In this document: piece by piece, positions 9,358-28,563 of the stretch
Layout: every line of letters starts with the position of its first letter
How positions within the stretch are numbered: position 1 is the first letter of the stretch
Origin: an uncultured archaeon
GTDB lineage: Archaea; Thermoproteota; Nitrososphaeria; Nitrososphaerales; Gagatemarchaeaceae
Direction of reading: 5' to 3'
Assembly (NCBI GenBank): GCA_963799775.1
Contig: CAWCYD010000003.1
Span: forward strand, 224,001-288,000
DNA length: 64,000 bases
Made by a program: the position numbers and the translations under genes
The notes under the pieces: generated by a model
Database searches by the model: none
What the model was told of the DNA's origin: nothing
Seen by the model: the letters and a program-made list of their open reading frames with translations, nothing else

Positions 9358-9825
9358 TCAGTCGAAGCGGTATTCCATCTCCCAGGTGCGCTTCCATCCC
9401 AGCTTCGTGTAGACCTTCCTTCCCTTGACCGAGGCGTGCAGGAGGATCTTGTAGTATCCCCTCTTCCTCGCCCATTCCATAGCCTCCTTGACGATCATAG
9501 ACGCCAACCCGTTCCTCCTGTATTCGCGAACGGTGTACACCGACATCAAGTATGGTATCAGCCCGGCAGGGCGACCGGGCGAAGGCTGTTGCTCTCGAAG
9601 CCACAAGCAGCCGCTGGCCGCAACCTTCCCTCTGGCTGTCTTCGCTATGTACCCGTGGAAGACCCCTAGTCTCATCATCTCCTTCGCCCACTTCCCATAG
9701 GACTCCTCCAGAGACTGGAGCTCGCCTGTGGTTGAGTCGCTCATCTCCTCGAACATCTTGCTCCTATGCTCGACAAGCACGTCGATGTCTTTCGTGGTGG
9801 CCCTTCGAATCTTGAACGTTGGCAC
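9358..9825 (-). CDS. GNAT N-acetyltransferase
   Basis: VYTVREYRRNGLAS, LHAS..GRKVYTKLGW. Confidence 0.9.
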   Translation of the reverse strand: MPTFKIRRATTKDIDVLVEHRSKMFEEMSDSTTGELQSLEESYGKWAKEMMRLGVFHGYIAKTARGKVAASGCLWLREQQPSPGRPAGLIPYLMSVYTVREYRRNGLASMIVKEAMEWARKRGYYKILLHASVKGRKVYTKLGWKRTWEMEYRFD

Positions 9826-10041
9826 GGGGCGACTTTGCGACAGGTCGTTTAGAACTTATGCGTCGACCGTTATGGCGAAGCCAAGGTTAGAAGAGTCGGG
9901 CGTCCGCCACCTTTCTGACCGAGAATTCGTGAATCGAAGAAGTCTTATGAACGCGCCGAACATGCTCCTTCACGACCATTGTCCTCTCACGGGGGACTCG
10001 AAGAAGACGGATTGCGTGCGCGAAACGATGAGTTGGTCAAA

Positions 10042-10155
10042 ATGACCGAGCAGATGCATACTGCTCGATATGGTGGAATCTACTCTAACAGCGGCGGCCA
10101 ACCTTGGTCATACTGGATTTTCTGGGACGGACAAGACTACCGAATCGCCCATTGA
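10042..10155 (+). CDS. putative Trp-rich leader peptide of the trp operon (MTEQMHTARYGGIYSNSGGQPWSYWIFWDGQDYRIAH)
   Basis: 37-aa ORF with 3 TGG codons within 7 codons, ending 122 nt upstream of trpE on the same strand. Confidence 0.5.
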   Translation: MTEQMHTARYGGIYSNSGGQPWSYWIFWDGQDYRIAH

Positions 10156-10216
10156 GGGTCAATTTATCACCCGATGCGGGACAGCCGCGAAAGTCACCCA
10201 AGAACGGGACAATACC

Positions 10217-10234
10217 CATTTATGGGCATAAATG
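10217..10234. promoter_or_regulatory. perfect inverted repeat CATTTATG-gg-CATAAATG upstream of trpE
   Basis: 8-bp arms with a 2-nt spacer, adjacent to AT-rich ATTATTA. Confidence 0.55.
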
Positions 10235-10277
10235 ATTATTAGTGTTCATTCCTCGTGCCATCCTGAGCGTAGAATGG

Positions 10278-11716
10278 GTGACCACTTTTGGCAGCGAGCT
10301 CAGACTTGCCCGACAATCGCTGAAAGCTGAAAGGCTGAGGACGACCGATTCTCCCCGAGGGCTCTTCGTCAAGGTCCAGGAAGAGTTCGAGAACGCGTTC
10401 CTTCTAGAGTCTGCCATAGGAGAGCAGAGACTCGCGGAATACTCCTTCATCGGCTTTGGCCCGGGAACGCTCCTGAGTCTCAAGGACGGCCGGATTGATG
10501 CGCGTTCATCCGACGGAAGCAAGGACAGCTTACAGACCGACGAGCCGCTCGAGGACCTCAAGCGACTCCTCTCAATCCCGATCCCTTCAGGTCTGCGAGC
10601 GCGAAGCCCGTTCAGGTTCATCGGGGGCGCCGTCGGCTACATCTCCTATGACTCTGTGCGGTATTGGGAGCGGCTGCCAGTCAAAGCGAAGGATGACCTG
10701 TCGCTCCCCGACATGGAGTTCGGCATCTATACCGATGGGATCGCCTTCGACCACATCGGCAAGACGATCCACTACTATTCGCTGGGCAAAGAGAACCGAC
10801 TAGACCTGGTCCAGCGGTTGCTCCGCGCCAGCCCTCCGGAACGCGAGGGGCTCGAAGCTCGAGGCGTCGCGAGGCCGACGGTGGAAAAACCCAGGTTCGA
10901 GTCGATGGTCGAGGCAGCGAAGAGACAGATCACTGCGGGTGACATCTTCCAGGTCGTCCTCTCCAAGCGCTACGACTTCCAGCTGGAAGGCGACCTCTCC
11001 GTCTTCTACGAGGCGCTGAGCGAGATCAACCCTTCCCCCTACATGTACTTCCTGAAGTTCGGGGACCGTAAGATCGTAGGCTCCAGCCCCGAGATGCTGG
11101 TGAGGGTCGAGAACCGGCAGGTCGAGACCTTCCCAATCGCCGGTACGCGCCCTCATCTCATGGACAAGGCTGAGAACGCGAAGCTCACCAAGGAGATGCT
11201 CGCCGACCCCAAGGAGAAGGCGGAGCACGTGATGCTCGTCGACCTCGCGAGGAACGACGTCGGAAGGGTCGCGAAGTACGGGACGGTCAAGGTCCCCGAG
11301 CTGCTGACCGTCCAGCAGTTCAGCCACGTCCAGCACATCGTCTCGAGGGTGGTCGGGGCACTCAGGCCCGAGTTCAACTCTTTCGACGCGATGCGCGCGA
11401 TGTTCCCCGCCGGGACTGTCTCTGGCGCCCCAAAGCCCCGCGCGATGGAGATCATCGAGGAGATCGAACCGGTCAGGAGGGTCCCTACGCGGGGGCGCTC
11501 GGATACTTCTCGTTCAACGGGAACGCCGACTTTGCCATCACGATCAGGACACTCGTCGCCAGGGGGTCGAAGTGTAGCATCCAGTCAGGAGCCGGGATCG
11601 TCGCGGACTCTGACCCGTCGAAGGAATGGCACGAGACAGAGGCCAAGGCAGCCGGTCTGATGAGGGCGGTCGAGAAGGCGACCGGCAGCAAACTGAGGGG
11701 GGCCTCGGGGAGATGA
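10278..11716 (+). CDS. trpE: anthranilate synthase component I (frameshift near 11480)
   Basis: FLLES, GDIFQVVLS, NPSPYM, GSSPE, KEKAEHVMLVDLARND, FPAGTVSGAPK; GTG start (MTTFG). Confidence 0.95.
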
Positions 11717-12299
11717 AGGTCCATCGTGATCGACAACTACGACTCGTTCGTCTACAACCTGGCCCAGTACGTCGGTGAGCTCGGCGGGACCCGCACGTCT
11801 TCCGGAACGACAAGATCACTCTCGCCCAGGTGCGCGACATGGCGCCGGACCGCATCATCATCTCTCCCGGTCCCGGTCATCCTGCGGACGCCCGCTACTT
11901 CGGGGTCTGCCAGAAAGGTCCATCCAGGAGGTGAGCCCAGGCGTCCCGACCCTCGGGGTCTGCTTGGGCCATCAGGGCATAGGGACCTCTTTCGGGGCGC
12001 ACGTAAGCGGAGCCTCAAGGCTGATGCACGGCAAGACGAGCAGGATCCTCCACGACGGGCAGGGGGTGCTCAAGGGCGTGAAGAACCCGTTCGAAGCGAC
12101 CCGTTACCATTCTCTTGCGATAAACAAGGACGACATCCCCCCCGAGCTCAAGGTGACGGCCCTATCGATGGACGACGCGGAGATAATGGGGATAAGGCAC
12201 AGGAAGTATCCCATCGAGGGGGTCCAGTTCCACCCCGAGTCGATTATGACTCCCGAGGGCAAGAAGATAATCAGGAACTTCCTGAGAGGGTCGCGATGA
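11713..12299 (+). CDS. trpG: anthranilate synthase component II (frameshifts)
   Basis: [32 protein letters not shown] across frames. Confidence 0.95.
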
Positions 12300-13375
12300 C
12301 GCCCGTCCAAGACGCCATCCAGCAGATCTTGGATGGCAGGTGCAACCTCTCAGGCGAGACCATCGCCGCCTGTGTCAAGGACATCGCAGAGGGGGCCGCG
12401 ACGCCCGCCCAGGTAGCGGGGTTCCTGGTGGCCCTGAGGAAGAAGGGAGAGACCGTGGAAGAAATAGCCGCACTCGCCTCGGCTCTGAGGGGTTACAGCA
12501 CGATGAAGGAACGGCCCGTGGTAAAGGGGAGGATGGTGGACACCTGCGGCACCGGCGGCGACACTCTGAAGACCCCGAACGTCAGCACCATGTCCTCGTT
12601 CGTCGCGGCCGGCGCGGGAGCCGTCGTCGCGAAGCACGGTGGCCGCTCTGTCACGAGCAAGTCAGGGAGCGCCGACGTCTTGGAGCGCCTCGGCTTCAAC
12701 CTCGCCATGGAGCCCTCACGCGTCAAGGACTCGATCGAGCAGATAGGCATCGGCTTCATGTTCGCCCCGTCGTTCCACCCCGCGATGAAGCATGTCGCTC
12801 CCGTCAGGAAGGAGCTGGGCGTGAGGACGGTCTTCAACCTGATGGGGCCCCTGATCAACCCGGCGCGCGTCGACGCGCAGCTCGTGGGACTCTACTCGGC
12901 TGCCCTCGTCCCCCAGGTGGCAGCGGTGCTGGGCAGACTGGGCCTCGAGGAGGCGTTTGTCGTCCACGGGATGGAGGGCGTCGACGAGATCTCCGTCACA
13001 GGCAAGACGATGGTCTCACACCTCAAGGGCGGGCGCGTAGAGTCACGCGAGTATCTTCCGAAGGATTTCGGGCTCCGAGACGGGCCCCTCGTGCCCAGGA
13101 CGAGCCCGTCTGATGCCGACGAGGGAGCGATGCTCGCCCTCTCGATCCTGAGCGGAGACTGCAGCGAGCGCGACTATGGGCGACTGATGGTGCTGGCGAA
13201 CAGCGCCGCCTGCCTGGTGCTCGCGGAGAGGGCCGACAGCTTCTCCGAGGGGATAGAGCTCGCCTCCGTTTCCATAAAGAGCGGCAAGGCGATGTCGAAG
13301 CTCGAGGAGCTGGTGAAGTTCAGCGGAGGGAGCCTCGAGGCTGCGAGGGAGAGCTATGCAAAGAAGAAAGACTGA
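12296..13375 (+). CDS. trpD: anthranilate phosphoribosyltransferase
   Basis: DTCGTGGD, NVST, KHGGRSVTSKSGSAD, RTVFNLMGPL. Confidence 0.95.
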   Translation: MTPVQDAIQQILDGRCNLSGETIAACVKDIAEGAATPAQVAGFLVALRKKGETVEEIAALASALRGYSTMKERPVVKGRMVDTCGTGGDTLKTPNVSTMSSFVAAGAGAVVAKHGGRSVTSKSGSADVLERLGFNLAMEPSRVKDSIEQIGIGFMFAPSFHPAMKHVAPVRKELGVRTVFNLMGPLINPARVDAQLVGLYSAALVPQVAAVLGRLGLEEAFVVHGMEGVDEISVTGKTMVSHLKGGRVESREYLPKDFGLRDGPLVPRTSPSDADEGAMLALSILSGDCSERDYGRLMVLANSAACLVLAERADSFSEGIELASVSIKSGKAMSKLEELVKFSGGSLEAARESYAKKKD

Positions 13376-14190
13376 TGCCAATTTCATCTTCACGCTAGCC
13401 GACACTGCTTCCGAGACCATCGAGAGCGGATACTACGAGGGTCTTGACGCCAAGGCGGCGCGCGGCCTGAAGCACAGGAGCCTCAAGGCTTCGCTGGCGA
13501 CGTCGAAGCTGACGCCGGTCATCGCCGAGATTAAATTCACCTCCCCCGCCGAGGGCGAGCTGAGGAAACCTGGCGACGTCAGGAAGATCGCCCGGGCCTA
13601 CGAGCGCGGGGGGGTCTCTGGAATCTCCGTCCTGACGGAGCCGAGACACTTCGACGGTGACATCCGCTACCTCCCCCTGGTCAAGAAGTCCGTCAAAGTG
13701 CCGGTGCTGATGAAAGACATCGTCATCGACCCCGTGCAGGTCGATGCGGGCGCCAAGATGGGCGCGGACGCCATTCTCTTCATCGCGGCAATATTCATGA
13801 ATAGGCTCGCAAGGGCAGGCCTCGGAGAGATGCTCAATCTTGCCAAGAGCCGGGGTCTCGAGGTCCCTGATGGAGGCACACACAGAGAACGAGTTCATGT
13901 ACGCCCTCGAGTCCGGGGCGGACGTCGTGGGGATAAACAACAGGGACTTGGACACGCTGGATGTGTCGCTCTCGACATCGAAGAGGCTCCTCGCCGTGGC
14001 ACGGCAAGGGAAGGCGCGAGAAGGGATAAGCAAGGACAAGCTCGTCATCTCTGAGAGCGGCATCACGACGAGAGAGGAGATCCTCCAACTGAGCGAGCTA
14101 GGGGCTGACGGGTTCCTCATAGGGAGCGCTCTCATGAAATCCGGGGACATCGAGGAGAAGGTCAGGTCGCTCACGGGAGCAGCGGATTGA
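13356..14190 (+). CDS. trpC: indole-3-glycerol phosphate synthase (frameshift near 13865)
   Basis: VIAEIKFTSP, ISVLTE, LMKDI, GINNRDL, ISESGI, LIGSALM. Confidence 0.95.
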
Positions 14191-14861
14191 CCCGCGTGAA
14201 GATATGCGGCATCACCCGCGAGGAGGACGTCGATGCTGTCGTCGACGCCGGCGCGGACGCCCTCGGGTTCGTCTCAGGCTTCCCCAACTCTCCCAGAAAC
14301 CTCACGGTCTCAAGGGCGGCCTCGCTCATCTCGAGGGCCCCACCCTTCGTCACGCCGGTCCTTGTGGCGACCGCCCAGACGCTCGTGGAGCACTCTGACG
14401 AGATCAAGAGGTGTGCCCCGAAGGCGATACAACTCTACGGGAACGCGTTCTCTCAGGCGTCCATCAGGCCCTCTTTCCACGCGTACCTGCTGCGGCCCTG
14501 CGCTGTCGCCCACGACGTGGGTGACGAAGGCCTCGCGGCGCTAGAGAAGATCAAGGAGACGGTCAAGGGTTACGACGCCATCCTCACGGACGCCCACCGC
14601 GAAGGCTACGACGGCGGGACCGGCCTGACGTCTGACTGGAACTTCTGCTCCGCGATAAGGAAGAGCATCGCGCCGATGCCCCTGATCCTCTCCGGAGGTC
14701 TGAGGCCCGAGAACGTCGAGCTTGCGATAGCGACAGTCTCGCCCTTCTGCGTCGACGTCTCGTCCGGGGTGGAGTCTGCGCCAGGCGTCAAGGACCACTC
14801 GAAGGTCAAGACCTTCGTCACCAACGCCAACAAGGCTGAAGAGAGGCGGGTGGCTCCATGA
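14187..14861 (+). CDS. trpF: phosphoribosylanthranilate isomerase
   Basis: [29 protein letters not shown]. Confidence 0.95.
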
Positions 14862-14862
14862 C

Positions 14863-16086
14863 ATGACCTCGCGGAAGAGCAGCAAGGGCGAGAAGAACAA
14901 GTCCAAAGACTATCCGACCAACGGGAAGTTCGGGGGCTTCGGAGGGCAGTTCGTCCCCGAGACGCTTGTCCCGGCGGTCCAGGAGCTCGAGAAGGCGTAC
15001 CTTTCCGCACGCAAGGACAAGGCGTTCCAGGCCGAGCTCAGCAGGCTTCTGCGAGACTACGCCGGCAGGCCGACGCCCCTCTACCTCTGTGCCAACCTCA
15101 CGACGCACGCGGGCGCGGCGAGGATATTCCTCAAGAGGGAAGACCTCCTTCACGGGGGTGCCCATAAGATCAACAACACGCTCGGGCAGGCGCTGCTAGC
15201 CAAGAAGATGGGCAAGCAGAGGATAATAGCAGAGACGGGGGCCGGCCAGCACGGCGTCGCGACGGCGATGGCCTGCGCAGCGCTCGGCCTCAAGGCCGAG
15301 ATCTACATGGGGTCCGAGGACGTGGAGAGACAGAAGCTCAACGTCTACAGGATGAAGCTCCTCGGAGCCCAGGTGCACCCCGTCGAGAGCGGGTCCAAGA
15401 CGCTCAAGGACGCCATCAACGAGGCTCTCAGGGACTGGGTGACGAACGTGGGTTCCACCTACTACCTCCTGGGCTCGGTCGTGGGCCCTCATCCCTACCC
15501 GGTCATGGTCAGAGACTTCCAAAGCGTCATAGGAGACGAGGTCAAGGCAGAGTTCAAGAAGACAGGGAAAGGCCTTCCAGATGCGATCGTCGCCTGCGTC
15601 GGGGGCGGGAGCAACGCGATGGGGAGCTTCCACGCCTTCGAGGGTGACCCGAAGGTGAAGCTCTATGGCGTCGAGGCCGGCGGGATGGGGGCGGGGAGGA
15701 ACGCGGCACCCCTCATCGAAGGGAGAAAAGGCGTCCTCCATGGCATGATGACATACGTCCTCCAGGACGAGCACGGCCAAGTCCGCGGCACAGAGAGCAT
15801 CTCGGCGGGCCTCGACTACCCGGGAGTGGGCCCTGAGCACTCCTTCCTGAAGGAGACCGGGAGGGCCACCTATGTCTCAGTGACCGACGACGAAGCCGTC
15901 GGAGCCTTCCACCTCCTCTCCGAAAAGGAGGGGATCATCCCCGCGCTCGAGTCGGCCCACGCGGTCGCATACGCGGTGAAGCTGGCTGGAAGGATGGGCA
16001 AGACCCAGTCGGTTGTCGTCACGCTCTCAGGTAGGGGTGACAAGGACGTGCAGCAGGTCGCGAGAAGAGAGGGCACGGAGCTCTGA
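14863..16086 (+). CDS. trpB: tryptophan synthase beta subunit (TrpB1 type)
   Basis: [38 protein letters not shown]. Confidence 0.97.
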
Positions 16087-16902
16087 GCCCCATCTCCTCG
16101 GTCTTCGCCAAGCTCTCAGGAGAGGCAGCCCTCGTGGCCTACGTCATGGGAGGCGACCCCGACCTGGCGGCGTCTGCCCACGTGATCGACGCGGTGATCC
16201 GCGGGGGCGCTGACATCGTGGAGGTTGGCCTACCGTTCTCCGACCCGATCGCGGACGGCAAGTCGATACAGGCCGCAGATGTCCGAGCCCTGTCGTCAGG
16301 CTCCACCCCGGCAAAGGTCATGAGCGTCATCTCGAGCGTCAAGGCGCGTCATCCGGAGGTGCACCATCGTCGCCATGACGTACTACAACATACTCTACTC
16401 CAACGGCGTCGAGAAGTTCCTGCTGCAGGCGAAGAGCGGCGGAGTCGACGGGATGATCGTCCCCGACCTGCCTTTGGAGGAGGTCGCAGACTACCATCGG
16501 ATCGCAAGGTCGCTTGGACTGGATACGATACTCTTGGCGGCCCCTACCACTCCTCCAGAGAGGATGCGGAGGATCGTCGAGCAGACGTCGGGATTCCTAT
16601 ACCTTGTCTCACTCATGGGCGTTACGGGGGCGCGCCCAGGGGTCGAGGAGAGCAGCCTCGAGCTGGTCAAGAACGCGAAGAAGTTCGCAAAGGAAAGGAA
16701 CGTCCCCCTCGGCGTGGGTTTCGGCATATCGACGCCAGACCAGGTCCGGGCCATGGTCGAAGCTGGCGCTGACGCCGTGATAGTCGGAAGCGGAATCGTG
16801 GACAAGGTCGCGGGCTACGACTCTGCCGGGAGCTCGGTCTCGCTCGTGAAGATCGCCGAATACGTGCGAGCGCTGAAGGAAGCTACCAGAAAGAAGAGCT
16901 AA
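16083..16902 (+). CDS. trpA: tryptophan synthase alpha subunit (probable CTG start; frameshift near 16365)
   Basis: [33 protein letters not shown]. Confidence 0.95.
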
Positions 16903-16914
16903 ACAGATAACTCG

Positions 16915-17776
16915 TCAACGAGCGCTGTAGACTTCCCTTATCGCCGCCTTGCCCTTCCTGCCAGAGGCGTAGGTCTTCGCGAGCCTCCCGAACTCCGTCC
17001 TGAACGCGTCCCAGTCGGACCCTTCCACGACCTCGATGGCTCTCCTGAGCTCACGCAGGGCCTCTCTTCCGACCTTCCTGGTGTAGCCGTTCGAGGCCTG
17101 TATGGCGAACGAGAGCCGCGGGTCTTGGGCAAGGATCGCCTCCGCCAGCGTCATCTGCATGGAGGAGTTCGGCGTCGAGATCCTGTCGAACTCATCCGGC
17201 GAGAGGAACTTTGCCATCGTCCCCGCGTACACCAGGTTCAGCAGGTGCGTGAGAGAGAGCACGGCTGCCATCGCCTGGTCGTGCTCCTTCCTCGTCATCG
17301 GGATTATCCGCGCACCGGGGAACAGCCTCTTTGCGAGCGAGGCCTCAGTACCAGGCCTTCCTCCCTCCTTCTTCACTATGACGGCTAGCTTCATCCCGTC
17401 CGCGGACTCGAGCGCAGGGCCGAAGAGAGGATGTATGGACAGCAGAGAGACCCTCTCCCCCGCCAATTTCCTGAGAGCCGGCAAGGTCTCCCCCTTGACG
17501 GACATGATATCGATCAGGGTAGACCCTCGCTTCATCTTGGGGACGGCCTCCTCTGCCACCTTCAAGGTGCTCTCGATGGGGACTGCCATCAGGACGAGGT
17601 CGCAGCCTCTCACGGCCTCAGAGTTCGAGGCGGCGCTCTTGACGTGTACACCTCGGGGCGACTGCCTCCTCGCCTTTCTCGAATCGAACCCGCGCACCGT
17701 GTCTCCTTTCTCGATGAAGTACCTCGCGAAGAAGGGCACCCATCCCGCCCCCTGCTCCGAGGACGGCGACCTTCAA
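16915..17776 (-). CDS. tyrA: prephenate/arogenate dehydrogenase (frameshift near the N-terminus)
   Basis: KVAVLG N-terminus, DIMSVK, SIHPLFGP, EHDQAMA..LSLTH. Confidence 0.9.
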
Positions 17777-19194
17777 CTCAGCATTTCGCCTATCTTCCTA
17801 ACCCCGGCGGTGAGGGTCTCTTGAGGCTGACCGAGGGAGATCCTGAAGCATCTGGGGTAGTCTCCGAACCCGGTGCCAGGGCTGATGGTGACCCCCTTCT
17901 TCTCCAGGAGCTCCATCGCGAAGGACGAGGAGTCGAACGCCGGGTCCTTTGCCTGTGGGAACGCGTAGATCGCTCCCTCGGGCTTGAGAATCTCGAGGGC
18001 GTCTATCTTCTCTATCTCCGCGGTCGTCGCGTCTATCCTCTCTTTCATCACGCGCGAGTTCCTCGAGACTTCCTCGGCGCAGTCGAGCGCCTTCGCCGCA
18101 CCCCTCTGGATGAACTCAGGGACGCAAGTGATCATGAGCCCGAGGATCTTGAGCATCTTCGCGCTCGTCTCAGGCGGAGCCAGAGAGTAGCCTATCCTGA
18201 ATCCCGTCATGCTCCACGCCTTGGAGAACGACGACGTGAGGACGTACTTCTTGGGCAGCCTCTCGAGGATGCTCGGGCACGGTTTGTAGGCGTAGTCGTT
18301 GTAGATCTCGTCGCTTATCACCGTGAGGCCATGGTCGTCGGCGATCTCGACTATCTCGCCGAAGCGCCTCTTGTCCATTATCTTCCCCGTCGGGTTGGAA
18401 GGATAGCTCAAGACGATCGCCTTGGTGTTGGGCTTTATCGCAGCCTCGACCCTCTCTGGCGACGGCTCCCACCCTTCCTCCATCGTGGTCGGGATGGTGA
18501 TCGCTCGGACTCCGATGAACTCAAGGCCCTCCTTGTACGCGGGCCAGTTGGGCTCGATCACTATCACGCTGTCCCCTTCAGCGGCGACGGTCGCGAGCGC
18601 GGAATACACGGCGAACCTCCCTCCCGGGGTCACGATGAGCTGGCTCTCCGCGGCCTGGAAGTCGTGCCTCCTGGCGAGGTATGCGCGGAGCGCCGACAGC
18701 AGCTCCGGTATTCCGCGCCCGACGGTGTAGTATGTCTTGTAGGAGTACAAGGCCTCGGAGACCGCATCGAGGACCGCCTTTGGAGGACGGAAGTCGGGCT
18801 CCCCGACGTCGAGGCGGATGAGCTTCTTCCCGCTCTTCTCTATCTCCGTCGCCTTGGCCATCATCATCATCGGCGTGATGAAGGTCTGCTTCTTCGCCGC
18901 CCCCACGCTGCGCTGCGCGGTCTTGGATTCCCTGAGCAGCGTGCTTAGGATCTTCAGGCCTAGCTCTTGGTCCAGGCCTATTCTCTTGCAGTCGCTGATC
19001 ACCTCTTGGAGGAGGGCGTCCTCGACCTTCTCGTTGTCGATGGGGAGCGACTCCCGGCTCTTCACCTGGCCTATCTTCTTCGAGAGCTCCACCCGCTTCG
19101 CGACGAGCTCGATTATCTCACTCGTCGTCTCCGCGACCTCTTCTCGAAGGCTCCTGAGCTCCGACTCTGTCTCCTCGACCCCGCTGCTAGTCAT
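17773..19194 (-). CDS. chorismate mutase (AroQ) fused to a class I/II aminotransferase
   Basis: N-terminal LRSLREEV...KRVELSKKIGQVK; GEPDF, PSNPTG, SDEIY, SFSKAWSMTGFRIG. Confidence 0.9.
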   Translation of the reverse strand: MTSSGVEETESELRSLREEVAETTSEIIELVAKRVELSKKIGQVKSRESLPIDNEKVEDALLQEVISDCKRIGLDQELGLKILSTLLRESKTAQRSVGAAKKQTFITPMMMMAKATEIEKSGKKLIRLDVGEPDFRPPKAVLDAVSEALYSYKTYYTVGRGIPELLSALRAYLARRHDFQAAESQLIVTPGGRFAVYSALATVAAEGDSVIVIEPNWPAYKEGLEFIGVRAITIPTTMEEGWEPSPERVEAAIKPNTKAIVLSYPSNPTGKIMDKRRFGEIVEIADDHGLTVISDEIYNDYAYKPCPSILERLPKKYVLTSSFSKAWSMTGFRIGYSLAPPETSAKMLKILGLMITCVPEFIQRGAAKALDCAEEVSRNSRVMKERIDATTAEIEKIDALEILKPEGAIYAFPQAKDPAFDSSSFAMELLEKKGVTISPGTGFGDYPRCFRISLGQPQETLTAGVRKIGEMLS

Positions 19195-20309: not shown

Positions 20310-20310
20310 G

Positions 20311-21650
20311 CTAGTCGCTGCTCACCCTAGCCCCGAGCTTCTTGAGGTCTTCCAGGAACGTCGGATACGAGACGTCGAGGCTCTCGACACCGACGATCGG
20401 GGTCCTCCCGGGATCAGCATCGACGCCAGTGAGAAGGCCATGAACATCCTGTGGTCGTCGTGCGCGTCGAGGGCGGCCGGTTCGAGCTTCCCTCTGACGG
20501 GCGCTATCCTCAGTCCGTCGGGCCTCTCCTTCACGCTCGCTCCAAGCTTCGAGAGCTCCTTCGCGACTATCGCGATTCTGTCGGTCTCCTTGAACCTGGC
20601 GTGTGCCGTCCCCACCACCTCCACGGGCGTGTCGCACCTCAGAGCCAGCGCCGCGACGACCGGGAGAAGGTCCGGGGTGTCCCCGAGGTCGAATGACCCG
20701 CCCAGCAGGGTGTCGCCGTCCGAGGAGACGACCAGGCCGTCCTTCTCTTGGGTCACGTTCGCTCCCATCTTCTTGACTATCTCAGTTATCCGAGCGTCTC
20801 CCTGAGGCAGGCTGGCGTCGAGGTTCTCGATTCTCACCCTTCCTCCTATCATCGCGACCGCCGCGATGATGAAGGACGCCGAGCTAAAGTCCGCGGGCAC
20901 GGTGAAGTCCGCGCTCCTGTATTCTTGGCCGGATCTGACCTCGAACTCCGCGTACCCCTTGTTCGAGGCCTTCACTCCAAAGTGCGCCGCGAGCCTCAGC
21001 GTCATCTCGATGTAAGGCCTTGAGACGGCGTCCGCGACCTTGAGCGTCGTGTCTATCTCCGCCATGGGGCTCGAGATGAGGAGCGACGAGACGAACTGCG
21101 AAGAGACGTCCCCCCGGATGGACGCCCTCCCACCTCGCATCCCTCCTGACTTGATTATCACGGGGGCGCACCCGTTCCCCCTGGAGCTCCATCCCTGGAC
21201 CCCAAGCTGCCCTAGGGTGTCCAGGAGGGGCTGCATCGGCCTCCTCCTTATGCTAGAGTCCCCGGTGAGGACGACGAAGCCTTCTGGGGCGAGCGAGAAC
21301 GCGGAGGTCATGAACCTGAGCGTCGTCCCCGAGTTCTCGACGTTGACGACGTCGTCGGGGACCATCGGCTTCGTGCCCTTGATGACTAGCATCCCTTGTC
21401 GCCTCTCCATCTCTGCCCCCATCGCGGCGCAGGCGGACACGGTGGCGTTGGTGTCTCGGGAGAGCAGCGGGTTTCGTATCTTCGAACTTCCCGCCCTCCC
21501 CGCGGACTGCGCCAGGCTCGCGATGAGCACGGCTCTGTGCGTGTAGCTCTTGCTCGGCGGCACCGAGACGCTCCCGCTCAACTTCCCCGCCGCGAGGGCC
21601 CTCGTCGCGTGGACGGAGGCAGCCCTAGCCAACAGAGAGCAGCCTCCCAT
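20311..21650 (-). CDS. aroA: EPSP synthase (frameshift near the C-terminus)
   Basis: PPSKSYTHR, NSGTTLRF, SSQFVSS, RFKETDRI, DDHRM. Confidence 0.95.
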
Positions 21651-22517
21651 GCTCGTTGTTTGTCTCCGTCTCGATCACCGTGCTCCCGTCGCTCTGCCAA
21701 TCTTTCTTGAGGGCCTCCATCTCGGCCTGCCTGGAGGCGTCGAAGACCGCGGCCACCGCCGGCCCGGTCCCCGAGAGCCCCGCCCCCAGCGCGCCGTGTT
21801 CCACAGCGCGGAGCGCAGGAGAGGGGTCGTACTTCAGTATCGACGAATACGTCATCCCGTTCAAGACCATCGCCCTCCAGTAGTCGCCCTTAAGCGTCAT
21901 CTCGAAGAAAAGGTCGGTGAGGAGCCCGAACTTCCTGATGAGCTGGGGCTCGACGCTCTCTCGCCTGCTCTTCGTCCTTGGGATGACGACAAGCACTCTG
22001 AGCTTCTTGTCGAACAGCCTCGAGCTGACCACCTTGCGTGCGAGGTTGTCGGTCATGTTCAGGCCTCCGAGAAGGCAGCCTGAGGCGTCGTCCAGCGCCC
22101 CGGTGATGCTGGCCCCGCTGGCGAGCGAGGCTTGGACGCTGCAGTCGAGGGCCCTCTTGGGGTCGAAGGCCTTCTGCCCGAGGGCGGCGAAGACCGCGAT
22201 GGAGATGGCGGTCGAGGCGGCCGAAGAGGTCTTCAGGCCCACGCCTATGGGCACAGAGGACACAGTCCTCACATTCCCGCTGAAGCCGCCTGGTCCTTCC
22301 CGCTCATCTTTATCGCCAGTCTCACCGTCTCCAATGCGAGGGCCGAGCCGGTCCTCTTGCCGTTGACGCTGACCGACCACTGACCGGGAGAGTCTTCGAG
22401 CTCGACCTCTGCCTCGGTCGGAAGCCTGACGCTCGCCGTCGCTCCCTTGCCGCTAGCTATCGCGTTGACTATGCTTATCGCGCCGAAGGTCGTCGCCTTC
22501 GCCTTCACCACTGTCAC
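21625..22517 (-). CDS. aroK: archaeal shikimate kinase (GHMP family; frameshift near 22300)
   Basis: GAISIVNAIASGKG, PIGVGLKTSSA, ITGALDDA, GLSGTGP. Confidence 0.93.
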
Positions 22518-23390
22518 TTGCTCTTTCGGCCCCCTTTCTTCCGACTCGGAGACTGCCCGCCCTTTAGCGCGGCCACAAGCGCTTCCCTCATCTCGCTCTC
22601 GGGGGCCCCCCTTCCCGTCCAGAGCTTGAAGGCAGCCATCCCTTGGTGCAAGAGCATGTCCTCGCCATGTATGACCTTCGCGCCCGACCGGCGGGCCTCC
22701 ACAAGCAGGCCGGTCTCCTTGGGACGGTAGACGGCGTCGAACACGACCTCGCTTCCCGGAACGATCCGCTTCGCCCCGGAGGGGAGGGCAGCCCCGTCTG
22801 CCCCCATGGGCGAGGCGTTGAATATCAGGTCATGGTTGAGATGATGGAGGTCGCCTCATCGAGGCCAGGGTGAGGTTGAGGCGCGGGAAAGCCTTCTCCA
22901 TGTCCTGCACGAACGACCTCGCGCGCTCGGGGTCGCGGACTGCCACGCCCACGTCGACTATCCCGAGCCTGTTCATGGCCTCGCAGAACGCTCGCGCTGC
23001 ACCGCCCGCCCCTATCAGGAGCGCGTTCCTGACGTAGATGGAGGCAAGCAGCCCGCGGAGCGGCTCCACGATCCCGTCCGGGTCCGTATTGTGCCCGGAG
23101 TACCTCCCGTCCTCCTCGAGCTTCACAGTGTTGACAGCTTGTATCCTCGTCGCGACGGCGTCGAGCTCGTCCAGGAACCGGAGCACGGCCGCCTTGAACG
23201 GGATGGTGACGTTCATCCCCTTGAAGCGGATCGAGATGAGGCGGCGGAACTCCCTCGGGAACGCCTGCTCTGGAACGCTCACCTGCGAGTACTCGGCGTC
23301 GATCGCCAGGGCCTTGAACGCGGCGTTCATCATGGCCGGCGAGGGCGAGCGAGACACGTCCCTCCCCACGATGCAGTAGCGGTCGGTCAT
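22514..23390 (-). CDS. aroE: shikimate dehydrogenase (frameshift near 22850)
   Basis: SPSPAMMN, NVTIPFK, AVNT, GHNTD, GAGGAAR, DAVYRP, MLLHQG. Confidence 0.95.
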
Positions 23391-24087
23391 CCCGCTTCGT
23401 TGGGGACCAGGCCCCTGAACTCAATCATGGTGGAAATCGAGAGCTGGCCAGGCGCGACCGCATCGTTGGGGAGAGCGGCGTAGGCGATTGGAGCCTGCAT
23501 GAACATGGAGAGCAGTCGCGACGAGGCACCCTCCTCGCCCATGCAGAACGCCGTCACCTTCCCCGGGTTCTCCTCGCAGAGCCTCAGTGCGCTGACGTTG
23601 TCCTCGAGCTTTGTTGCCGTCGTCACCACCTTCGCTATCGCCCCGTATTGCAGCTCGTCTTTGCAGCTTCTCCTCAGCTCGCTCAGCGGAGGTGCCCCTT
23701 GAAGTCGTGCCACGAGACGATCCTCTCCACCTTGTTCGGCAGGCTCTTCAGCCACCTCTCGTTGTCGACCGCGGTCCTGAGCTCCACGTCCAGGTAGGCG
23801 GGGAGCATAGTGGCAAGCTCCGAGATCAGGCTCAGGCGCTCGATGTCGCTCCCAGAGAACGCCCCTCCTTCTTGGTTGGTCCTTACGGTCACGACGGAAC
23901 GCGGCGCGAACTTCGCCAGCTTTGTCTTGATGTCCTCAGGCGTCACCCTGCTCATGATGCGGTCTATCCGGAACTCCACCAGGTCCGCGCCTAGATGGAA
24001 CGCATACTCCGTCTTCTGGACCATCTCATCGAGAGAGTCTGCGCTTATCGATGCGCATATCTTGGGCATGACTCGCTTGTTGGCCAT
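23387..24087 (-). CDS. aroD: type I 3-dehydroquinate dehydratase (frameshift near 23700)
   Basis: ADLVEFRID, TVRT..EGG, VSWHDF, MG..SR, APGQ. Confidence 0.93.
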
Positions 24088-24103
24088 CCATCTCTCACTT
24101 GGG

Positions 24104-25120
24104 TCAGCGCTCCAAGATGAACTCGTCTACCTCTCCGCCAAAGTGCCTGGCCTTGCCGTGGGCTGCGACGTGGACGAGTATCTCGTCGCCCGCCTTTGCC
24201 TCGGTGACCGCCACGGGCCTGCCGTCCGGCCTCACGAGGCGGATGGTCTCTGCGTTCTGGATCATGGCCGTGCCTTCGTGCCCATCGCACTCCGCGACCA
24301 CCATCACCAAGGGCCTCCTCTCCATCTTTATCCTCCCGACTGTCGCCTCGCGCCTCTTGCCCGCAAAGTCGACGAGCTGGACCTTGTCCCCGGCCTCCAG
24401 CTCAGAGAGGTATCTCGTCTTCCCGTCCGCTCCCAGGATGTAGCTGTGCAGCGCGCCCGCGTTGACCCTGAACGGCCTCGTGGGTATGTACTCGGTGGGG
24501 ATCGTCTCGCTGTGGACGAGGAAGAAGAAGCTGGCCTTGCTCCCTATGAGCATGCCCTCGCCCAGGGAGAGCTGAGATGCGGTGTCGATGCAGACCCTCT
24601 CCCCGTCACCCACGTCCACGATCCGCTTGACCCTGGCCTTTACGAGCTTGAGCTGGTCGCCGTCGACGTTGGCCATAAGTCTCTTGACGGCCGCCAAGGA
24701 CGAGTAGGGCACCACGACGCCGTCGACCCCCTTCTCGAGGATGGAGAACGCCAACCTGATGTCGCTCTCGCTCTTCATGAATGCGTAGATCTTCCTGTGC
24801 TTCCTCCTGAACTCTCCGATGAGGTTCTCAAGAGGTATGATCTTCCAGTTTGTGCAGTCCACCACGACGAACTTGTGGTCATGCTTCAGGGCTGACTCGA
24901 CCGCCCTGTCCAGGTCCTTGGCGCCCTTGACCTCTATCCACGCAAAGTCCCCTTCTTTCTCCTTGTACTCGCGCATTCCCGACCCCGACGCGGCGCCCAG
25001 AGGCCTCGCGCTCCTGTTGATGACTGCGTTGATGCCGGCCCCCTTGGCCTCCTTCAGAGCTTTCGAGAGGTCTTTTGCTTCCGTGAGGTCGAGGATAATC
25101 TCTTTCTCAGGCTGGAGCAG
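24104..25120 (-). CDS. aroB': 3-dehydroquinate synthase II (AroB')
   Basis: WKIIPLEN, ERVCIDT, GEGMLIGS, RPFRVNAG, IQNAETI; frame open to CTG 25120 after GGAGGT. Confidence 0.93.
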   Translation of the reverse strand: MLQPEKEIILDLTEAKDLSKALKEAKGAGINAVINRSARPLGAASGSGMREYKEKEGDFAWIEVKGAKDLDRAVESALKHDHKFVVVDCTNWKIIPLENLIGEFRRKHRKIYAFMKSESDIRLAFSILEKGVDGVVVPYSSLAAVKRLMANVDGDQLKLVKARVKRIVDVGDGERVCIDTASQLSLGEGMLIGSKASFFFLVHSETIPTEYIPTRPFRVNAGALHSYILGADGKTRYLSELEAGDKVQLVDFAGKRREATVGRIKMERRPLVMVVAECDGHEGTAMIQNAETIRLVRPDGRPVAVTEAKAGDEILVHVAAHGKARHFGGEVDEFILER

Positions 25121-25900
25121 CGCCCATTACCTCCATCGCCTCTTCCACGCTGCCTCCGTCGATCACCACCCGCCTGATCGCCCTGACGATGAGGGTCGGG
25201 TCGCGGTGCTGGAATACGTTCCTCCCGAACGTGACGCCTGCGGCCCCTGCCTCCATGACGTCGCTGGCTAGCTTGAGGATCTCAAGGTCGTTCTCTACCT
25301 TCGCCCCTCCCGCGAGGACGACCGGGACAAGGCACTTCCTCACGACTTCCCTGAAGGTCTCCGGGCTCCCTGTGTAGACCGTCTTGACGATGTCCGCCCC
25401 CGACTCGGCCCCGACCCTCGCCACGTGCGCCACCACCTGCGGGTCCGTGGGTCCTTGATGTTCTCGCCCCTGGGGTACATCATCGCGATCAGCGGGACCT
25501 GGTACTCGTCGCACTCGTCCGCGACCAAGCCGAGCTGTTGGAGCATCTCCGGCTCCTCTTTGGAGCCCATGTTGATGTGGACCGAGATCGCGTCCGCACC
25601 GAGCCTCAATCCCTCCACTACCGAGGAACTGACCATCTTCCTGTTCGGCGCAGGGCTTAGGTTGGTGCTCGAGGAGATGTGCATGATCATCCCGATTGGG
25701 GCTGGCTTCCTCATCGCCTTGATCACTCCCTTGTGGACGAGGAAGGCCGTCGCGCCGCCCTTCGCCACCTTCGCGATCATCTCCTCAGGGCCCTCGAGAC
25801 CTGCGATGGGTCCGACTGTGAAGGAGTGGTCCATGGGGATGCAGAGCATCCTTCCGCCCTTCGTTATCCTGTTGATCCTCACCTGCTTCCCGAACACCAT
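25107..25900 (-). CDS. aroA': 2-amino-3,7-dideoxy-D-threo-hept-6-ulosonate synthase (class I aldolase, AroA'; frameshift near 25445)
   Basis: PMDH, GADAISVHIN, MMYPRG, GADIVKT, GRNVFQH; adjacent to aroB'. Confidence 0.9.
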
Positions 25901-25907
25901 GTCTCCA

Positions 25908-26982
25908 TTACCTCCCCAGGTATCCCTCTCTTTCCATGAGCTCCGCTGTAAGTATTGCCGTCCCGGCCGCTCCACGGATCGTGTTGTGGGAGAGAAGGGT
26001 GAGCTGCAGCGACCTCTCGTCTATCCCGTTCCTGACCCGGCCGACGACGACGCTCATGCCGGGCACGCTCCCCGCCAGCCTGTCGAGGCGCGGCTGGGGC
26101 CTGTCGTTCTCCTTCCTTACGATGATCGGCTGCTGGGGCGCCGTCGGGAGCTTCAGCTTCTGGGGCTCGCCCTTGAACCTCTCCAGAGCCCTCTCGGCAG
26201 ACTTTGGCGAGATCCTCCCCGGGAACTCCGCATAGAGGGTCTCCATGTGCCCGTCGATGACCGCGACCCGGTTGCAGGAGATGCCCATTCTTATCGGGCT
26301 AGGCTTGATCGCGCCGCCGACGAGCTTGCCAAGGATCTTCTTCGCCTCGGCGGCCACCTTCTCCTCCTCGTTCTTGATGTAGGGTATGACGTTCTCCTGT
26401 ATCGCGAGCGAGGGGACTCCCGGATATCCGGCACCTGAGAGGGCCTGCATCGTCGTGACGATGGCCTTCTCGGCGCCGAACTCGTCGATTAGGGGCTTGA
26501 GCACCATGGAGAGGCCCGTGCCCGTGCAGTTCGGCGTCGTCGCTATGGCGCCCTTCCACCCCCTCTTGTTCTTCTGGGACTTTAGAAGGCCCAGGTGCTC
26601 GGCGTTTATCTCGGGTATCATCAGAGGCACGTCTGGGTCCATCCGGTGGGCGCTCGCCTCGCTCACGACCGTGAATCCTGCCTCGGCGAACTTCGACTCG
26701 ACCTCAGCTGCGACCTCCGAAGGCAGCGCAGAGAAGACGACGTCGCATCCCCTCGCGGACTCCGGTCTGGCACGCTGTACGACCTTCGCGGCCATCTCCT
26801 CGTCCATCTCGTCAGGGAACAGCCAGTGCACGGCCTCCCCGTACTTCTTGCCCGCTGACTCGCCTCCCATCAGGCACCTCCAGCCTCAGGTAGGGGTGCC
26901 TGGGGAGCATGTTGATGTAGCGCTGCCCTACTGCGCCCGTCGCGCCCAGCAGGGCGGCCTTGACCTCTCTACGCTTGCTCAT
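25908..26982 (-). CDS. asd: aspartate-semialdehyde dehydrogenase (frameshift near the N-terminus)
   Basis: LLGATGAVGQ, PNCT, QALSGAGYPG, HNTIRGAAG. Confidence 0.95.
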
Positions 26983-28226
26983 CGTGATTGCATCCTTCCT
27001 GGGGCTTGCGGCTCGCTCGCCATCGCCTCCGTCACCAGGCTGTAGGCCCTTTCCGAGTCGTCGTTTGAGACGAAGACCCTGACGGACGAGAGGATCGTCA
27101 CTATGCCGTAGACGTTGATGCCCGTCTTTGCGAGAGGAGTGGTGATCCTCTGGACCACACCGCGCTCCGTCTCGAGCGCCGCCCCCTTGACGGTGATCAT
27201 GGAGAGGTGGGGGAACTCGGAGACGGCCTTGCCTATCTTCTCCTCTATGAGCACATGGTGAACGCTGTCCAGCACGTTCTCGCCCCCGCCCACGTAGAAG
27301 ATGGCCGCGCTCGTCTCGAGCGAGAGGGCCAGCAGGTCGCCTCGAGCCTCTCTCACCGCAGCGACCGCTCGCATGATCGAGTCGGTCTTGGCCGGATTGA
27401 GGCCGACGAGGGTGATCATCGAGACCCCTCCTCGTACGATCTCCACCTGGGCGGGCGAGAGCTCACCCTTGATGACAGTCCCGGAGTCGAGCTTCTCGAG
27501 GCTCGTGACCCTGATCCGGAGTCCGGATGATTGGTATCTGAGGGCCTTTACGTGGAGGAACTTTGCCCCGCCCGCCGCGAGCATCTCAGCTTCCTCGCCG
27601 TTCAGACTCTCGATGAACTGCGGGTTGGTGACCTTGTCGGGGTCGCTCGAGTAGACCCCTTCCACGTCCTTGACCAGTATGACCTCCTTCGCATCCAAGC
27701 AGTTGCCGAGCAGCACGGCCGTCGTGTCGCTCCCTCCTCTGCCCAATGTCGTCGTCTTTCCGCGGATCGTCTTCCCCAGGAAGCCGCAGACGACAGGCAC
27801 GCGTCCCGCCGCCAAAAGAGGCATAATCAGCTGCTGGGCCTTCGCCCTGCTCTCCGCCACGAGCGGGTTCGCGTCTAGATGCTTCTCGTCCGTGATGACG
27901 GGCCAGTACGGAGTATCGGGGTCGACGACGACCGACTGGAGGCCGAACGACGCGAGGGCCGCCGCGACGAGTCTGGCGCTCGTCTTCTCTCCGGACGAGA
28001 GCAGCTCGTCGAGCAGATGGGGCTCGATGCCCGGGTTCTCCTTCTTCGAGAGGGACATTATCTGATCTGTGACGCCCTTCATCGCGGAGACGACCGCGAC
28101 CACCCCGAGCCCCTTGCTCTTCGTCTCTTTGATCAGGGAAGCCACTTGGTTGATGGCCTTCTCGTTCTCGAGAACCGATCCGCCGAACTTGACGACGACG
28201 GTCTCAATCATCTTAGTTGTGCTCAT
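26979..28226 (-). CDS. lysC: aspartate kinase
   Basis: VVKFGGS, VVSAM, TTLGRGGSDTTA, DVEGVYSSDP, ACT-like tail. Confidence 0.95.
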   Translation of the reverse strand: MSTTKMIETVVVKFGGSVLENEKAINQVASLIKETKSKGLGVVAVVSAMKGVTDQIMSLSKKENPGIEPHLLDELLSSGEKTSARLVAAALASFGLQSVVVDPDTPYWPVITDEKHLDANPLVAESRAKAQQLIMPLLAAGRVPVVCGFLGKTIRGKTTTLGRGGSDTTAVLLGNCLDAKEVILVKDVEGVYSSDPDKVTNPQFIESLNGEEAEMLAAGGAKFLHVKALRYQSSGLRIRVTSLEKLDSGTVIKGELSPAQVEIVRGGVSMITLVGLNPAKTDSIMRAVAAVREARGDLLALSLETSAAIFYVGGGENVLDSVHHVLIEEKIGKAVSEFPHLSMITVKGAALETERGVVQRITTPLAKTGINVYGIVTILSSVRVFVSNDDSERAYSLVTEAMASEPQAPGRMQSR

Positions 28227-28274
28227 GGTGCAAGACGCTCCAGCTGATTTTCGCGTAGGAAACTAGAGCGCGAG

Positions 28275-28349
28275 CTAGTAGCGAAAACCGAAGATGGGCT
28301 TCCAATAACCGAGGTTCCCATAAACTGAACCGCCTCTGTGGAGCTCCAT
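28275..28349 (-). CDS. putative aromatic-rich leader peptide of the lysC-asd-aro operon (MELHRGGSVYGNLGYWKPIFGFRY)
   Basis: 24 aa with 3 Tyr, 2 Phe, 1 Trp; TATA-like CATAAATAT ~32 nt upstream; ends 48 nt before the lysC ATG. Confidence 0.6.
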   Translation of the reverse strand: MELHRGGSVYGNLGYWKPIFGFRY

Positions 28350-28563
28350 CTCTTCTTCACTCTCTGGCGCTCGAGAATCGATATTTATGCATTGCTGAGT
28401 TGGAACGGCGCCTTTCCCCTGGCCCACAGGGCATCGCACTGGTTCTCTGGTCTGTCTACCTGGCCGAAAGATTCTTTCGAGAAAAATCATAAACATCACT
28501 TCCGACATATTAAATAGAGGAGGTCGGGGCACCGAAAAATCCTCAGGGTAGGGTACTGGTCGT

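Follow-up and report, generated by a model that had tools for sequence, protein, structure and literature searches.

Is the synthesis of aromatic amino acids in an uncultured archaeon governed by leader peptides and, if so, at which of its operons? The question is raised by a 64,000-nucleotide (nt) stretch of DNA, referred to here as the window (G000:C3:224001-288000), which belongs to a 3-contig, 2.47-Mb archaeal metagenome-assembled genome (MAG; 82% complete, GC content of ~62%) from a genus of the Nitrososphaerota (Thaumarchaeota), 'Gagatemarchaeum' group. Pfam annotation of the window identified two convergent operons, trp on the forward strand and aro on the reverse strand, and the original prediction held that each begins with an aromatic-rich small open reading frame (ORF), the two being homologous leader peptides of an attenuation system. 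Both ORFs are present in the sequence, at 10042-10155 on the forward strand and at 28349-28275 on the reverse strand. For the aro ORF, we favor, with moderate confidence, the interpretation that it is a leader peptide gene involved in ribosome-mediated attenuation of the bacterial kind, likely acting on translation, whereas the trp-side ORF is not a leader. The argument for the aro leader is built on the following features.

28382-28390, reverse strand: TATA-box-like sequence GCATAAATA, the putative promoter of the aro leader and operon.
28349-28275, reverse strand: aro leader upstream ORF (uORF) MELHRGGSVYGNLGYWKPIFGFRY, 24 codons plus TAG, read as an ORF in the sequence.
28320-28337, reverse strand: core AGAGGCGGTTCAGTTTAT, codons R-G-G-S-V-Y, resembling the Shine-Dalgarno (SD) sequence GGAGGTGATC.
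26979-28226, reverse strand: aspartate-kinase-like gene (AA_kinase and ACT domains; Pfam), the first gene of the aro operon.

The uORF is separated from the kinase start by 48 nt and begins ~35-38 nt after the TATA-like GCATAAATA; aromatic residues make up 6 of its 24 positions. In 10 close relatives (9 over the full length, plus a separate fragment in G020), DNA homology at 80-84% identity extends from ~28396 through the uORF into the kinase gene. The CATAAAT sequence is invariant in all 21 same-genus sequences (alignment A1), and in other families the distance from AT-rich, TATA-like boxes to the core is 44-57 nt (counted by eye). The uORF itself is retained in all 21 same-genus upstream regions, that is, as a short ORF directly before a biosynthetic operon, which is one of the defining properties of attenuators. 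It starts with ATG in 10 copies and with TTG in 11 and terminates with TAG (17 copies), TAA (3) or TGA (1), always at the same in-frame place. The lengths of the 21 copies, 24, 20 and 19 codons, differ by indels that are multiples of three, the 10 uORFs with ATG starts being 24 codons long (e.g., MRLQRGGSVYPHLSYQKPIFGFRY) and the 11 with TTG starts 19-20 codons long (e.g., LKEQNRGGSVYRRSLFGFSF, LKGDSRGGSVYRWAFGFYYF and LKVQGRGGSVYDSAPCGFWF). Synonymous variation is found as well, with arginine encoded by AGA or CGA and the residues of FGF by TTC or TTT, GGT or GGC, and TTT or TTC, respectively. The interchange of start and stop codons, the in-frame indels and the synonymous changes are indirect signs that the uORF is translated. 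Throughout the genus, the tail of the peptide is aromatic (FGFRY, FGFYYF or GFWF), and its middle part varies freely; in the window's clade, the 8-residue C-terminal block (KPIFGFRY) is invariant except for one F-to-Y replacement.

The operon context extends past the genus: in 30 of 31 loci, from the order and one Thermoprotei MAG, ASD and/or aroA' come next after the kinase homologue. In three genera of the window's family, phenylalanine, tyrosine and tryptophan together account for 22-35% of the uORF residues versus 5-12% in the other two frames. Other genera of this family lack the exact core, and their uORFs end, immediately before the stop codon, in MKNAATRVGTASRFTVYGYYGYSW, MTEVGTRGAAYSWPLYGYSW, MKNAITRAERPAYWTVFGFFGYSW or MVSIANRLYLSYSYWVSYYY; VYGYYGYSW is a further example of an aromatic tail. 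At least five aromatic residues within the last 12 uORF codons are found in 14 of 36 genus-level representatives on the sense strand versus 0 of 36 on the antisense strand, and 12 have p ≤ 0.02 in comparison with shuffled sequences. The phylum was sampled with 200 further genomes (201 with G000), from which 29 kinase loci were fetched, 23 of them with an aro context. Of the latter loci, which lie outside the order, 13 again reach this threshold of five aromatic residues, with tails such as NPYYYYYYYCFF and RFYSFEYSFYYYFN preceding the stop; the aromatic uORFs of the phylum sample include MSSTAYFKELNTFNPYYYYYYYCFF, MNATLQTTNAFTRFYSFEYSFYYYFN, MELTKNACIVFFFSFWSYYYFALA and MRAVGLTCTGFSAFTTFSYYYRW. 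Six more loci, all belonging to a single genus, carry uORFs of the MRDCLFLTTGYSYYRYSETGASL type, three listed by the scan and the rest recognized by eye. Enrichment of leader codons for the amino acids that the operon produces, another property of attenuators, is accordingly found in the counts for the window, the family, the order and the phylum. Judged by these sequence comparisons, the aro leader is conserved from genus to phylum, and many other archaeal families seem to have an equivalent ahead of this operon. The broader proposal, that attenuation of this kind is old and widespread in Archaea, with a translated uORF, whose aromatic codons would signal the supply of aromatic aminoacyl-tRNA to the ribosome, governing the shikimate operon in Nitrososphaerota and other Thermoproteota and joined in the Nitrososphaerales to the SD-like core, is in our assessment evenly poised.

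Some of the loci in this wider set show additional features. At L133, L130-L131, L132/L134/L137 and L122/L124/L125, a strong, conserved hairpin follows the stop codon of the aromatic uORF directly or holds it in its loop. In L133 the hairpin is formed by GCTTCGAAACC...GGTTTCGAAGC, followed by TTTTTGTTTT, and three genomes of family f31 share the hairpin GCCCAGAAC...GTTCTGGGC. A T-run follows the post-stop hairpin in L133 and L130, so that a classical terminator look is seen in some distant lineages only. In genus g73 (L123 and L117), the kinase gene has no ASD or aroA' within the 1.5-kb flank, yet aromatic-tailed short ORFs lie upstream, with tails MTANLLSPRYRATFYRYY and GSGQSTYY ending 15-19 nt before the kinase. 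The leader may also serve stand-alone kinase genes, and the aspartate kinase loci of g73 that lack aro context are an unclean control, given the aromatic-tailed uORF of L123.

The 5' part of the uORF contains the core, in which the positions GAGGCGGTT, A and TTTAT are invariant in A1. The exact core is a single site in the genome at up to 3 mismatches, and two degenerate versions of the pattern gave 5 and 23 genome matches with no second plausible site among them. An order-wide form, GGCGRT-N4-TTTAY, is present in 29 of the 37 loci from outside the genus. In 17 of these 29 core-bearing loci, a start codon (7 GTG, 7 ATG and 3 TTG) is located exactly 6 nt before the GGC of the core, and one further locus has TTG at 9 nt. 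The codon that follows a start of this type is AGA, CGA, AGG, AAA or ACA, and the peptides conform to the pattern M-R/K-G-D/G-x-L/V/F-Y, for instance, the complete peptides MRGDRLYTERDHLFTNHIL, MRGDHLYIL, MKGDRLYQTAF and MTGDCLYRHESEGFFSFYNKAQ. The 3' end of the 16S rRNA of this genome is GGATCACCTCCT, relative to which the core is SD-like except for one conserved C mismatch. From the GAGG of the core it is 7 nt to codon 6 and 10 nt to the invariant Tyr codon; because this spacing equals that between real SD sequences and start codons in these loci, a ribosome paired through its 16S tail to the core GAGGCGAU-N4-UUUAY would have the invariant Tyr codon in its A site. No structure around the core was consistent across families (RNAduplex z mean of -0.4, with 3 of 34 values below -2), and a small hairpin around it, AGGC(G)/(C)GUUU, was dropped from consideration, its by-eye registers being inconsistent between families.

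The 3' part of the leader, from the end of the uORF to the kinase start, is predicted to engage in several RNA pairings, which together with the start region of the uORF define the following elements.

28340-28352, reverse strand: 5' arm of helix P1 (GAGAUG..GCUCC), which includes the uORF start codon (RNAalifold).
28291-28302, reverse strand: 3' arm of P1 (GAAGC.CAUCUU), codons K-P-I-F (RNAalifold, pair counts).
28281-28289, reverse strand: 5' arm of helix P2, GGUUUUCGC, uORF codons G-F-R (RNAalifold, pair counts).
28246-28254, reverse strand: 3' arm of P2, GCGAAAAUC, past the uORF stop (RNAalifold, pair counts).
28263-28271, reverse strand: anti-SD GCGCUCUAG, 4-12 nt after the uORF stop (minimum-energy fold).
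28235-28243, reverse strand: SD region CUGGAGCGU of the kinase gene, with GG.G invariant in A1.

Here, clade 1 denotes the window's clade and clade 2 its sister clade within the genus. In clade 1, P2 is paired in 100% of cells, with one compensatory change from UA to CG, in G008; P1 and P2 together are paired in 98.5% of cells, with 2 compensatory changes, a result matched by 8 of 500 shuffles. In clade 2, P1 is paired in 86% of cells and shows double changes in 6 of its 8 pairs, a score matched by none of 500 shuffles. The SD of the kinase gene, with GGAGG and GGTGA variants among relatives, is itself a pairing partner. In the minimum-energy fold of the window leader, GCGCUCUAG (28271-28263) pairs with CUGGAGCGU (28243-28235). 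In clade 2, it is the G-F codons of the uORF (GCUUU) that pair with the kinase SD (GAGGC), with 3 genomes switching jointly to UUUAU:GUGAA; the anti-SD:SD pairing plus a hairpin at the stop is paired in 93.6% of cells, and 1 of 500 shuffles reached this score. Folding of the free leader predicts an unpaired SD with a probability of 0.00 in the window and of 0.01-0.06 in three other leaders. The end of the uORF is, as in bacterial attenuators, a site of mutually exclusive structures: P2 versus anti-SD:SD in clade 1, and pairing of the G-F codons with the SD in clade 2. When a ribosome footprint was forced to be unpaired in a masking simulation, which models thermodynamic folding only, the probability of an unpaired SD in two clade 2 leaders (L033 and L037) climbed to 0.44-0.85, from 0.06 and 0.18, when the A site was placed on codons Tyr11 to Phe18. 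The original prediction that neither ORF is followed by a hairpin and T-run was borne out, with no terminator-like sites of this kind in 28150-28560 or in 9830-10330. Because the window has no terminator, attenuation is probably translational.

Relatives' versions of this region occur in environmental RNA libraries. Peat or soil metatranscriptomes from two studies yielded three contigs that together span 28031-28336; two of the three extend at least 31 nt to either side of the kinase start, and one reaches 61 nt into the uORF. The end of one contig, a single base inside the uORF ATG, was discounted as a transcript start, an adapter adjoining it there. The contigs hold a small share of the sampled words, and the parts that they do not cover are uninformative. 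These contigs of relatives lend weak support to the leader and the kinase gene being on one transcript.

We propose that the aro leader could operate as follows. Transcription would start from the TATA box at 28390-28382, making the uORF the 5' end of the message for the Asp-kinase/ASD/aroA'/aroB'/shikimate operon, and the uORF, with its final codons rich in Phe, Tyr and Trp, would be translated. In the free leader, P1 (start region with K-P-I-F), P2 (G-F-R with the region past the stop) and the anti-SD:SD pairing would form and sequester the kinase SD, with the putative anti-SD directly past the stop in clade 1 and within the G-F codons in clade 2. Under a shortage of charged aromatic tRNAs, the ribosome would linger on the aromatic tail, so that these pairings would be masked or re-routed and the kinase, with the operon, would be translated or shielded from premature termination. 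With a good supply, the ribosome would depart and the off-structure would return. In a variant of this scheme, by analogy with the bacterial tna operon, the stalled ribosome might shield the untranslated spacer from factor-dependent termination.

A number of observations weigh against this interpretation. In many ammonia-oxidizer-like families of the order, the uORF consists of 9-19 codons with 1-3 aromatic residues and is not significant compared with shuffles. The covariation of the helices comes from few lineages, both compensatory changes of clade 1 being found in G008, and the triple change in the anti-SD is confined to 3 related genomes. The RNA contigs are 88-95% alike and hence derive from relatives, and RNA libraries can hold DNA. 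In the masking simulation, the SD was freed only partly in the window's clade (0.17-0.52 in 4 leaders) and only at the final Tyr codon or the stop, and no release of the SD was obtained in 3 leaders of genus g20 or in the clade 2 leader L035; the simulation thus gives mixed support to the proposed switch. The third codon positions of the core (GGC, GAT/GGT, NTT) are retained across families in which the kinases are only 45-50% identical, and in family f11 a canonical start is found at -6 from the core in 0 of 9 loci, with an in-frame stop right after R-G-D in 4 of the 9, yet the core is kept. It follows from the retained third positions and from f11 that the core would have to play a role at the RNA level beyond the attenuation model.

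This role could be the primary one. Under an alternative that we regard as unlikely, what is conserved around the core GAGGCGRT-N4-TTTAY would be an RNA that works like a riboswitch or binds a protein, or else an operator in the DNA; the reading frame would be incidental or secondary, and an aromatic amino acid, a pathway intermediate or a protein would bind the core and gate the kinase SD. Such a role would account for the nucleotide-level retention of the core in 29 of 37 non-genus and 21 of 21 genus loci, third positions and f11 included, for P1, which encloses the core and covaries, and for the conserved C of GAGG-C-GAU, which mismatches the 16S tail although GGU would be synonymous. However, cmscan of 9500-29000 found no Rfam family at either leader at E values up to 10, the conserved part spans only ~12 nt, and across families neither a local hairpin nor a long-range helix around it is consistent. 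A binding site also fails to explain the interchange of starts and stops, the in-frame indels and the aromatic runs in lineages without the core (g20, g22 and other families), and f11 does carry aromatic-rich ORFs further on in the core frame (e.g., MPSWITYNSDEFFAYF, up to its stop). As a separate observation on this family, four of its loci (L091, L093, L099 and L103) have a long open frame in the interval from the core to the kinase start; it lacks a canonical start, is +1 relative to the core frame and is up to 48 codons long. As read by eye, this frame begins at ATT right after CTTT and its TAA overlaps the kinase SD (TAAGGAGG or TAAAGGGTGG); its tails are conserved between L091 and L093 (ASYFSIFAY and ASYFLNFAY).

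A second alternative assigns the conservation to the peptide itself. In an arrest peptide of the TnaC/SpeFL type, conserved residues would act in the ribosomal tunnel, with or without a small molecule, and a ribosome arrested on the final codons or the stop would lie over the anti-SD 4-12 nt downstream. The order-wide N-terminal motif, the near-invariance of the last 8 residues in the window's clade, and the prediction that the SD opens in this clade only if the final Tyr codon or the stop is occupied by a ribosome would all fit, as would the f11 ORFs that would stop right after R-G-D. We nevertheless find an arrest peptide improbable, more so than a binding site at the core. Both conserved blocks of the uORF are kept at the nucleotide level, that is, as nucleotides and not as amino acids, and the variable columns of the genus uORFs show no third-position bias (8, 8 and 10, and 11, 14 and 11, across the three codon positions), which also counts among the points against attenuation. 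Because of this pattern, the blocks seem to be constrained for codon identity and RNA pairing rather than for a folded peptide. Furthermore, the tails vary in length and swap F, Y and W freely, which is better accommodated by codon sensing, and a stall triggered by abundant aromatic amino acids would act in the wrong direction for a biosynthetic operon. Codon-sensing attenuation by the uORF is the reading that we retain.

Ribosome-mediated attenuation is a textbook bacterial mechanism that requires coupled transcription and translation; bacterial transcription attenuators of this class include trpL, pheL, hisL and others, as well as aroR of Corynebacterium. The aro leader shares with them the short ORF before a biosynthetic operon, the cognate codons and an ORF end that overlaps alternative pairings, but differs in its archaeal host, the lack of an intrinsic terminator in the window, the varying pairing of the kinase SD and the conserved 5' core. 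In the ermC and cat leaders, translation is attenuated by stalling in the leader ORF. These leaders, like certain mycobacterial uORFs, resemble the aro leader in that a stalled ribosome would refold the mRNA with no need for a terminator and in the very short 5' untranslated region (UTR), whereas the putative trigger here would be a shortage of aromatic aminoacyl-tRNA, not a drug, and the host is archaeal. TnaC and SpeFL detect a free metabolite through the nascent peptide, and the genes that they switch on are catabolic or encode decarboxylases; they also feature a conserved short peptide before a metabolic operon, and a ribosome at the end of the aro uORF would similarly cover regulatory RNA, but the tails of the aro leader are variable aromatic runs and the operon is biosynthetic. 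Actinobacterial attenuators are exemplified in PMC1262725, and the mycobacterial uORFs, which are leaderless and encode polycysteine, in bioRxiv 10.1101/834739.

In archaea, PMC6737238 describes TrpY, a repressor acting at TRP boxes in Methanothermobacter, and Tar (TK0271), an activator in Thermococcus; according to this paper, both are mostly missing from Crenarchaeota, which may rely on 'a third regulator or mechanism'. These proteins control the same pathway in archaea, and the conserved block before trpE in the window's genus might be bound by a protein of this type; they act on promoter DNA, however, whereas the aro leader is a transcribed uORF. Archaeal ribosome profiling has revealed small ORFs in 5' UTRs that are called 'reminiscent' of leader peptides in PMC10117724 and PMC11456600. 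The original prediction regarded this regulatory mode as not established in archaea, and we likewise found no description of it in the open-access papers searched, although subscription journals may differ. The aro leader is the strongest computational case known to us for amino-acid-sensing leader-peptide control in Archaea; if the proposed mechanism is true, no ribosome-mediated attenuator that senses amino acids would have been described earlier from this domain. It offers a testable case for the control of aromatic synthesis outside methanogens and Thermococcales, extends to relatives of the ecologically important ammonia oxidizers, and could guide the hunt for further archaeal leaders. 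In the present genome, a crude scan for other leaders rich in cognate codons, which the original prediction proposed to look for before further amino acid operons, returned 24 matches, none of them convincing. One His-rich match (C2:17785-17883) was rejected as a leader, being the C-terminal end of a frameshifted gene.

The counterpart proposed at the trp operon did not withstand comparison with relatives. The features concerned are these.

10042-10155, forward strand: trp-side small ORF MTEQMHTARYGGIYSNSGGQPWSYWIFWDGQDYRIAH, read as an ORF in the sequence; a stray ORF, not a leader.
10217-10249, forward strand: conserved trpE promoter block (TTTATGGGCATAAATGATTATTAG...), defined by homology to relatives, with promoter function putative.
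10278-16902, forward strand: trp operon (Pfam), comprising trpE, trpD with a possibly frameshifted trpG, trpC, trpF, trpB and trpA.

The trp-side ORF is Trp-rich, lies within a 58-aa ORF with a TTG start at 9979-10155 and is located 120 nt before trpE. A DNA search with 9980-10900 against 41 genomes (40 relatives and G000) matched 21, and in every relative the match begins at query position 238 or later (window position 10217), past the stop of the ORF at 10155. The upstream regions of trpE were collected from 19 loci, 17 of which contributed 299-760 nt each and one 74 nt, while L010 had none; the motifs of the trp-side ORF are absent before trpE in all 18 relatives' loci with upstream DNA. 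What is conserved there is a TATA-containing block with a TGTACA-like box and CATAAATGATTATTAG, 35-45 nt before ATG/TTG-GGTGAC, with unrelated sequence further up; this block is probably a promoter, possibly with an operator. The start region ATG/TTG-GGTGAC is found at the same place in relatives, and trpE likely starts with GTG at 10278 or with an earlier in-frame GTG at 10242. The trp-side ORF thus lies upstream of the putative promoter block and is present in 0 of 18 relatives' loci.

Its only protein-level homologue in the 41 genomes (E = 0.002; tblastn 3e-5) is MPITEGRLRKEEWHDVAYANSDGSYWIIFDGQNYQIAH, ending at its stop, in G016 (L105, G016:C6, ~1500-1620, minus strand), on a contig other than that carrying the trpE of that genome, where it converges on a DDE_Tnp_1 transposase gene. 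The two share the C-terminus Y.NS.G..SYWI..DGQ.Y.IAH; blastn detected no DNA likeness between the trp-side region of the window and the G016 copy, and the trp-side ORF matched no Pfam family and had no other homologue in the homologous-protein search. It may be a small gene that travels with mobile DNA. Everything considered, it is most simply described as a sporadic small ORF in variable DNA before the trp promoter and not a leader, and the trp operon is more likely controlled at the conserved promoter block.

That trp and aro possess two homologous leaders forming one coordinated attenuation system is, accordingly, very improbable. In its favor are the Trp-rich composition and the position of the trp-side ORF before trpE, and the resemblance of the two peptides, which exceeds chance expectation from composition: their Smith-Waterman score is 38, a value attained in just 36 of 5,000 shuffles of the trp peptide and in ~1 in 20,000 random genomic ORF tails (5e-05; maybe the trp ORF itself). 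However, the 'N-x-G' and 'YW' elements of the shared motif are, within the aro family, confined to the window's copy, with relatives having YPHLSYQK, YLRLGYQK and similar sequences in place of the motif, and the G016 homologue lacks R-x-GG-[IV]Y and reads WHDVAYANSDGSYWIIFDGQNYQIAH up to its stop. The shared residues are, therefore, conserved in neither family, and the resemblance is real but superficial and not a sign of homology. Homology to relatives that begins only past the ORF stop, the absence of the ORF from the 18 trpE loci and a sole homologue beside a DDE transposase all argue in the same direction. In 29 further genomes of the phylum, no Trp-rich uORF before trpE was conserved beyond one same-genus pair; ORFs with at least two Trp codons precede trpE at 6 loci of these genomes, where trpE is possibly not the first gene in all. 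Of the original prediction, the leader-peptide attenuation proposed for aro is supported by a conserved uORF, present in all 21 same-genus regions, and by covarying pairings to the SD, whereas the trp half is not supported, and the correction matters: the trp 'leader' is a false lead, and there is no two-leader family.

Further observations concern the region before trpE. In L167 and L168 (G179 and G186, from one genus), the presumed trpE start lies within the reach of a short ORF, M(PRL)WGMCLWQ, which contains two Trp codons and overlaps it by ~17 nt; this ORF might be a uORF specific to trp in the genus concerned or a product of chance. TGTACA-like boxes lie directly before the trpE TATA in most relatives from the genus (L004-L020; e.g., GACAGTGTACATAAACGTACATAAATGATTAT) and also before the TATA of the aro operon in genus g20 (L068 and L070). 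They resemble the TRP boxes bound by TrpY in Methanothermobacter (consensus TGTACA), which suggests a DNA-binding regulator at promoters with such boxes.

Downstream of the kinase gene, the aro operon continues as follows.

16915-26870, reverse strand: ASD, aroA' aldolase (DeoC-type), DHQS-II (aroB') and GHMP-type kinase (Pfam).
16915-26870, reverse strand, same span: EPSP synthase, chorismate synthase, chorismate mutase-aminotransferase fusion and prephenate dehydrogenase (Pfam).

Many genes of both operons match partial Pfam profiles in separate, overlapping ORFs (10242-16902 and 16915-26870). On the trp side, the C-terminus of trpE is out of frame past ~11480, the 549-aa trpD ORF has no GATase match in its first 190 aa, the trpC ORF spans profile positions 24-161, and trpA is split between 16134-16772 and 16375-16902; on the aro side, the DHQS-II match spans 66-344 and ASD lacks its N-terminus. 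In a 3-contig MAG of 82% completeness, these splits look like indel errors of a long-read assembly, although they may also be real pseudogenes. Between the promoter of the aro leader and a divergent glycosyltransferase-2 gene (28564-30126), an AT-rich stretch, TCTATTTAATATGTCGGAAGTGATGTTTATGATTTTT, is located at 28480-28520 and is probably the promoter of the glycosyltransferase-2 gene.

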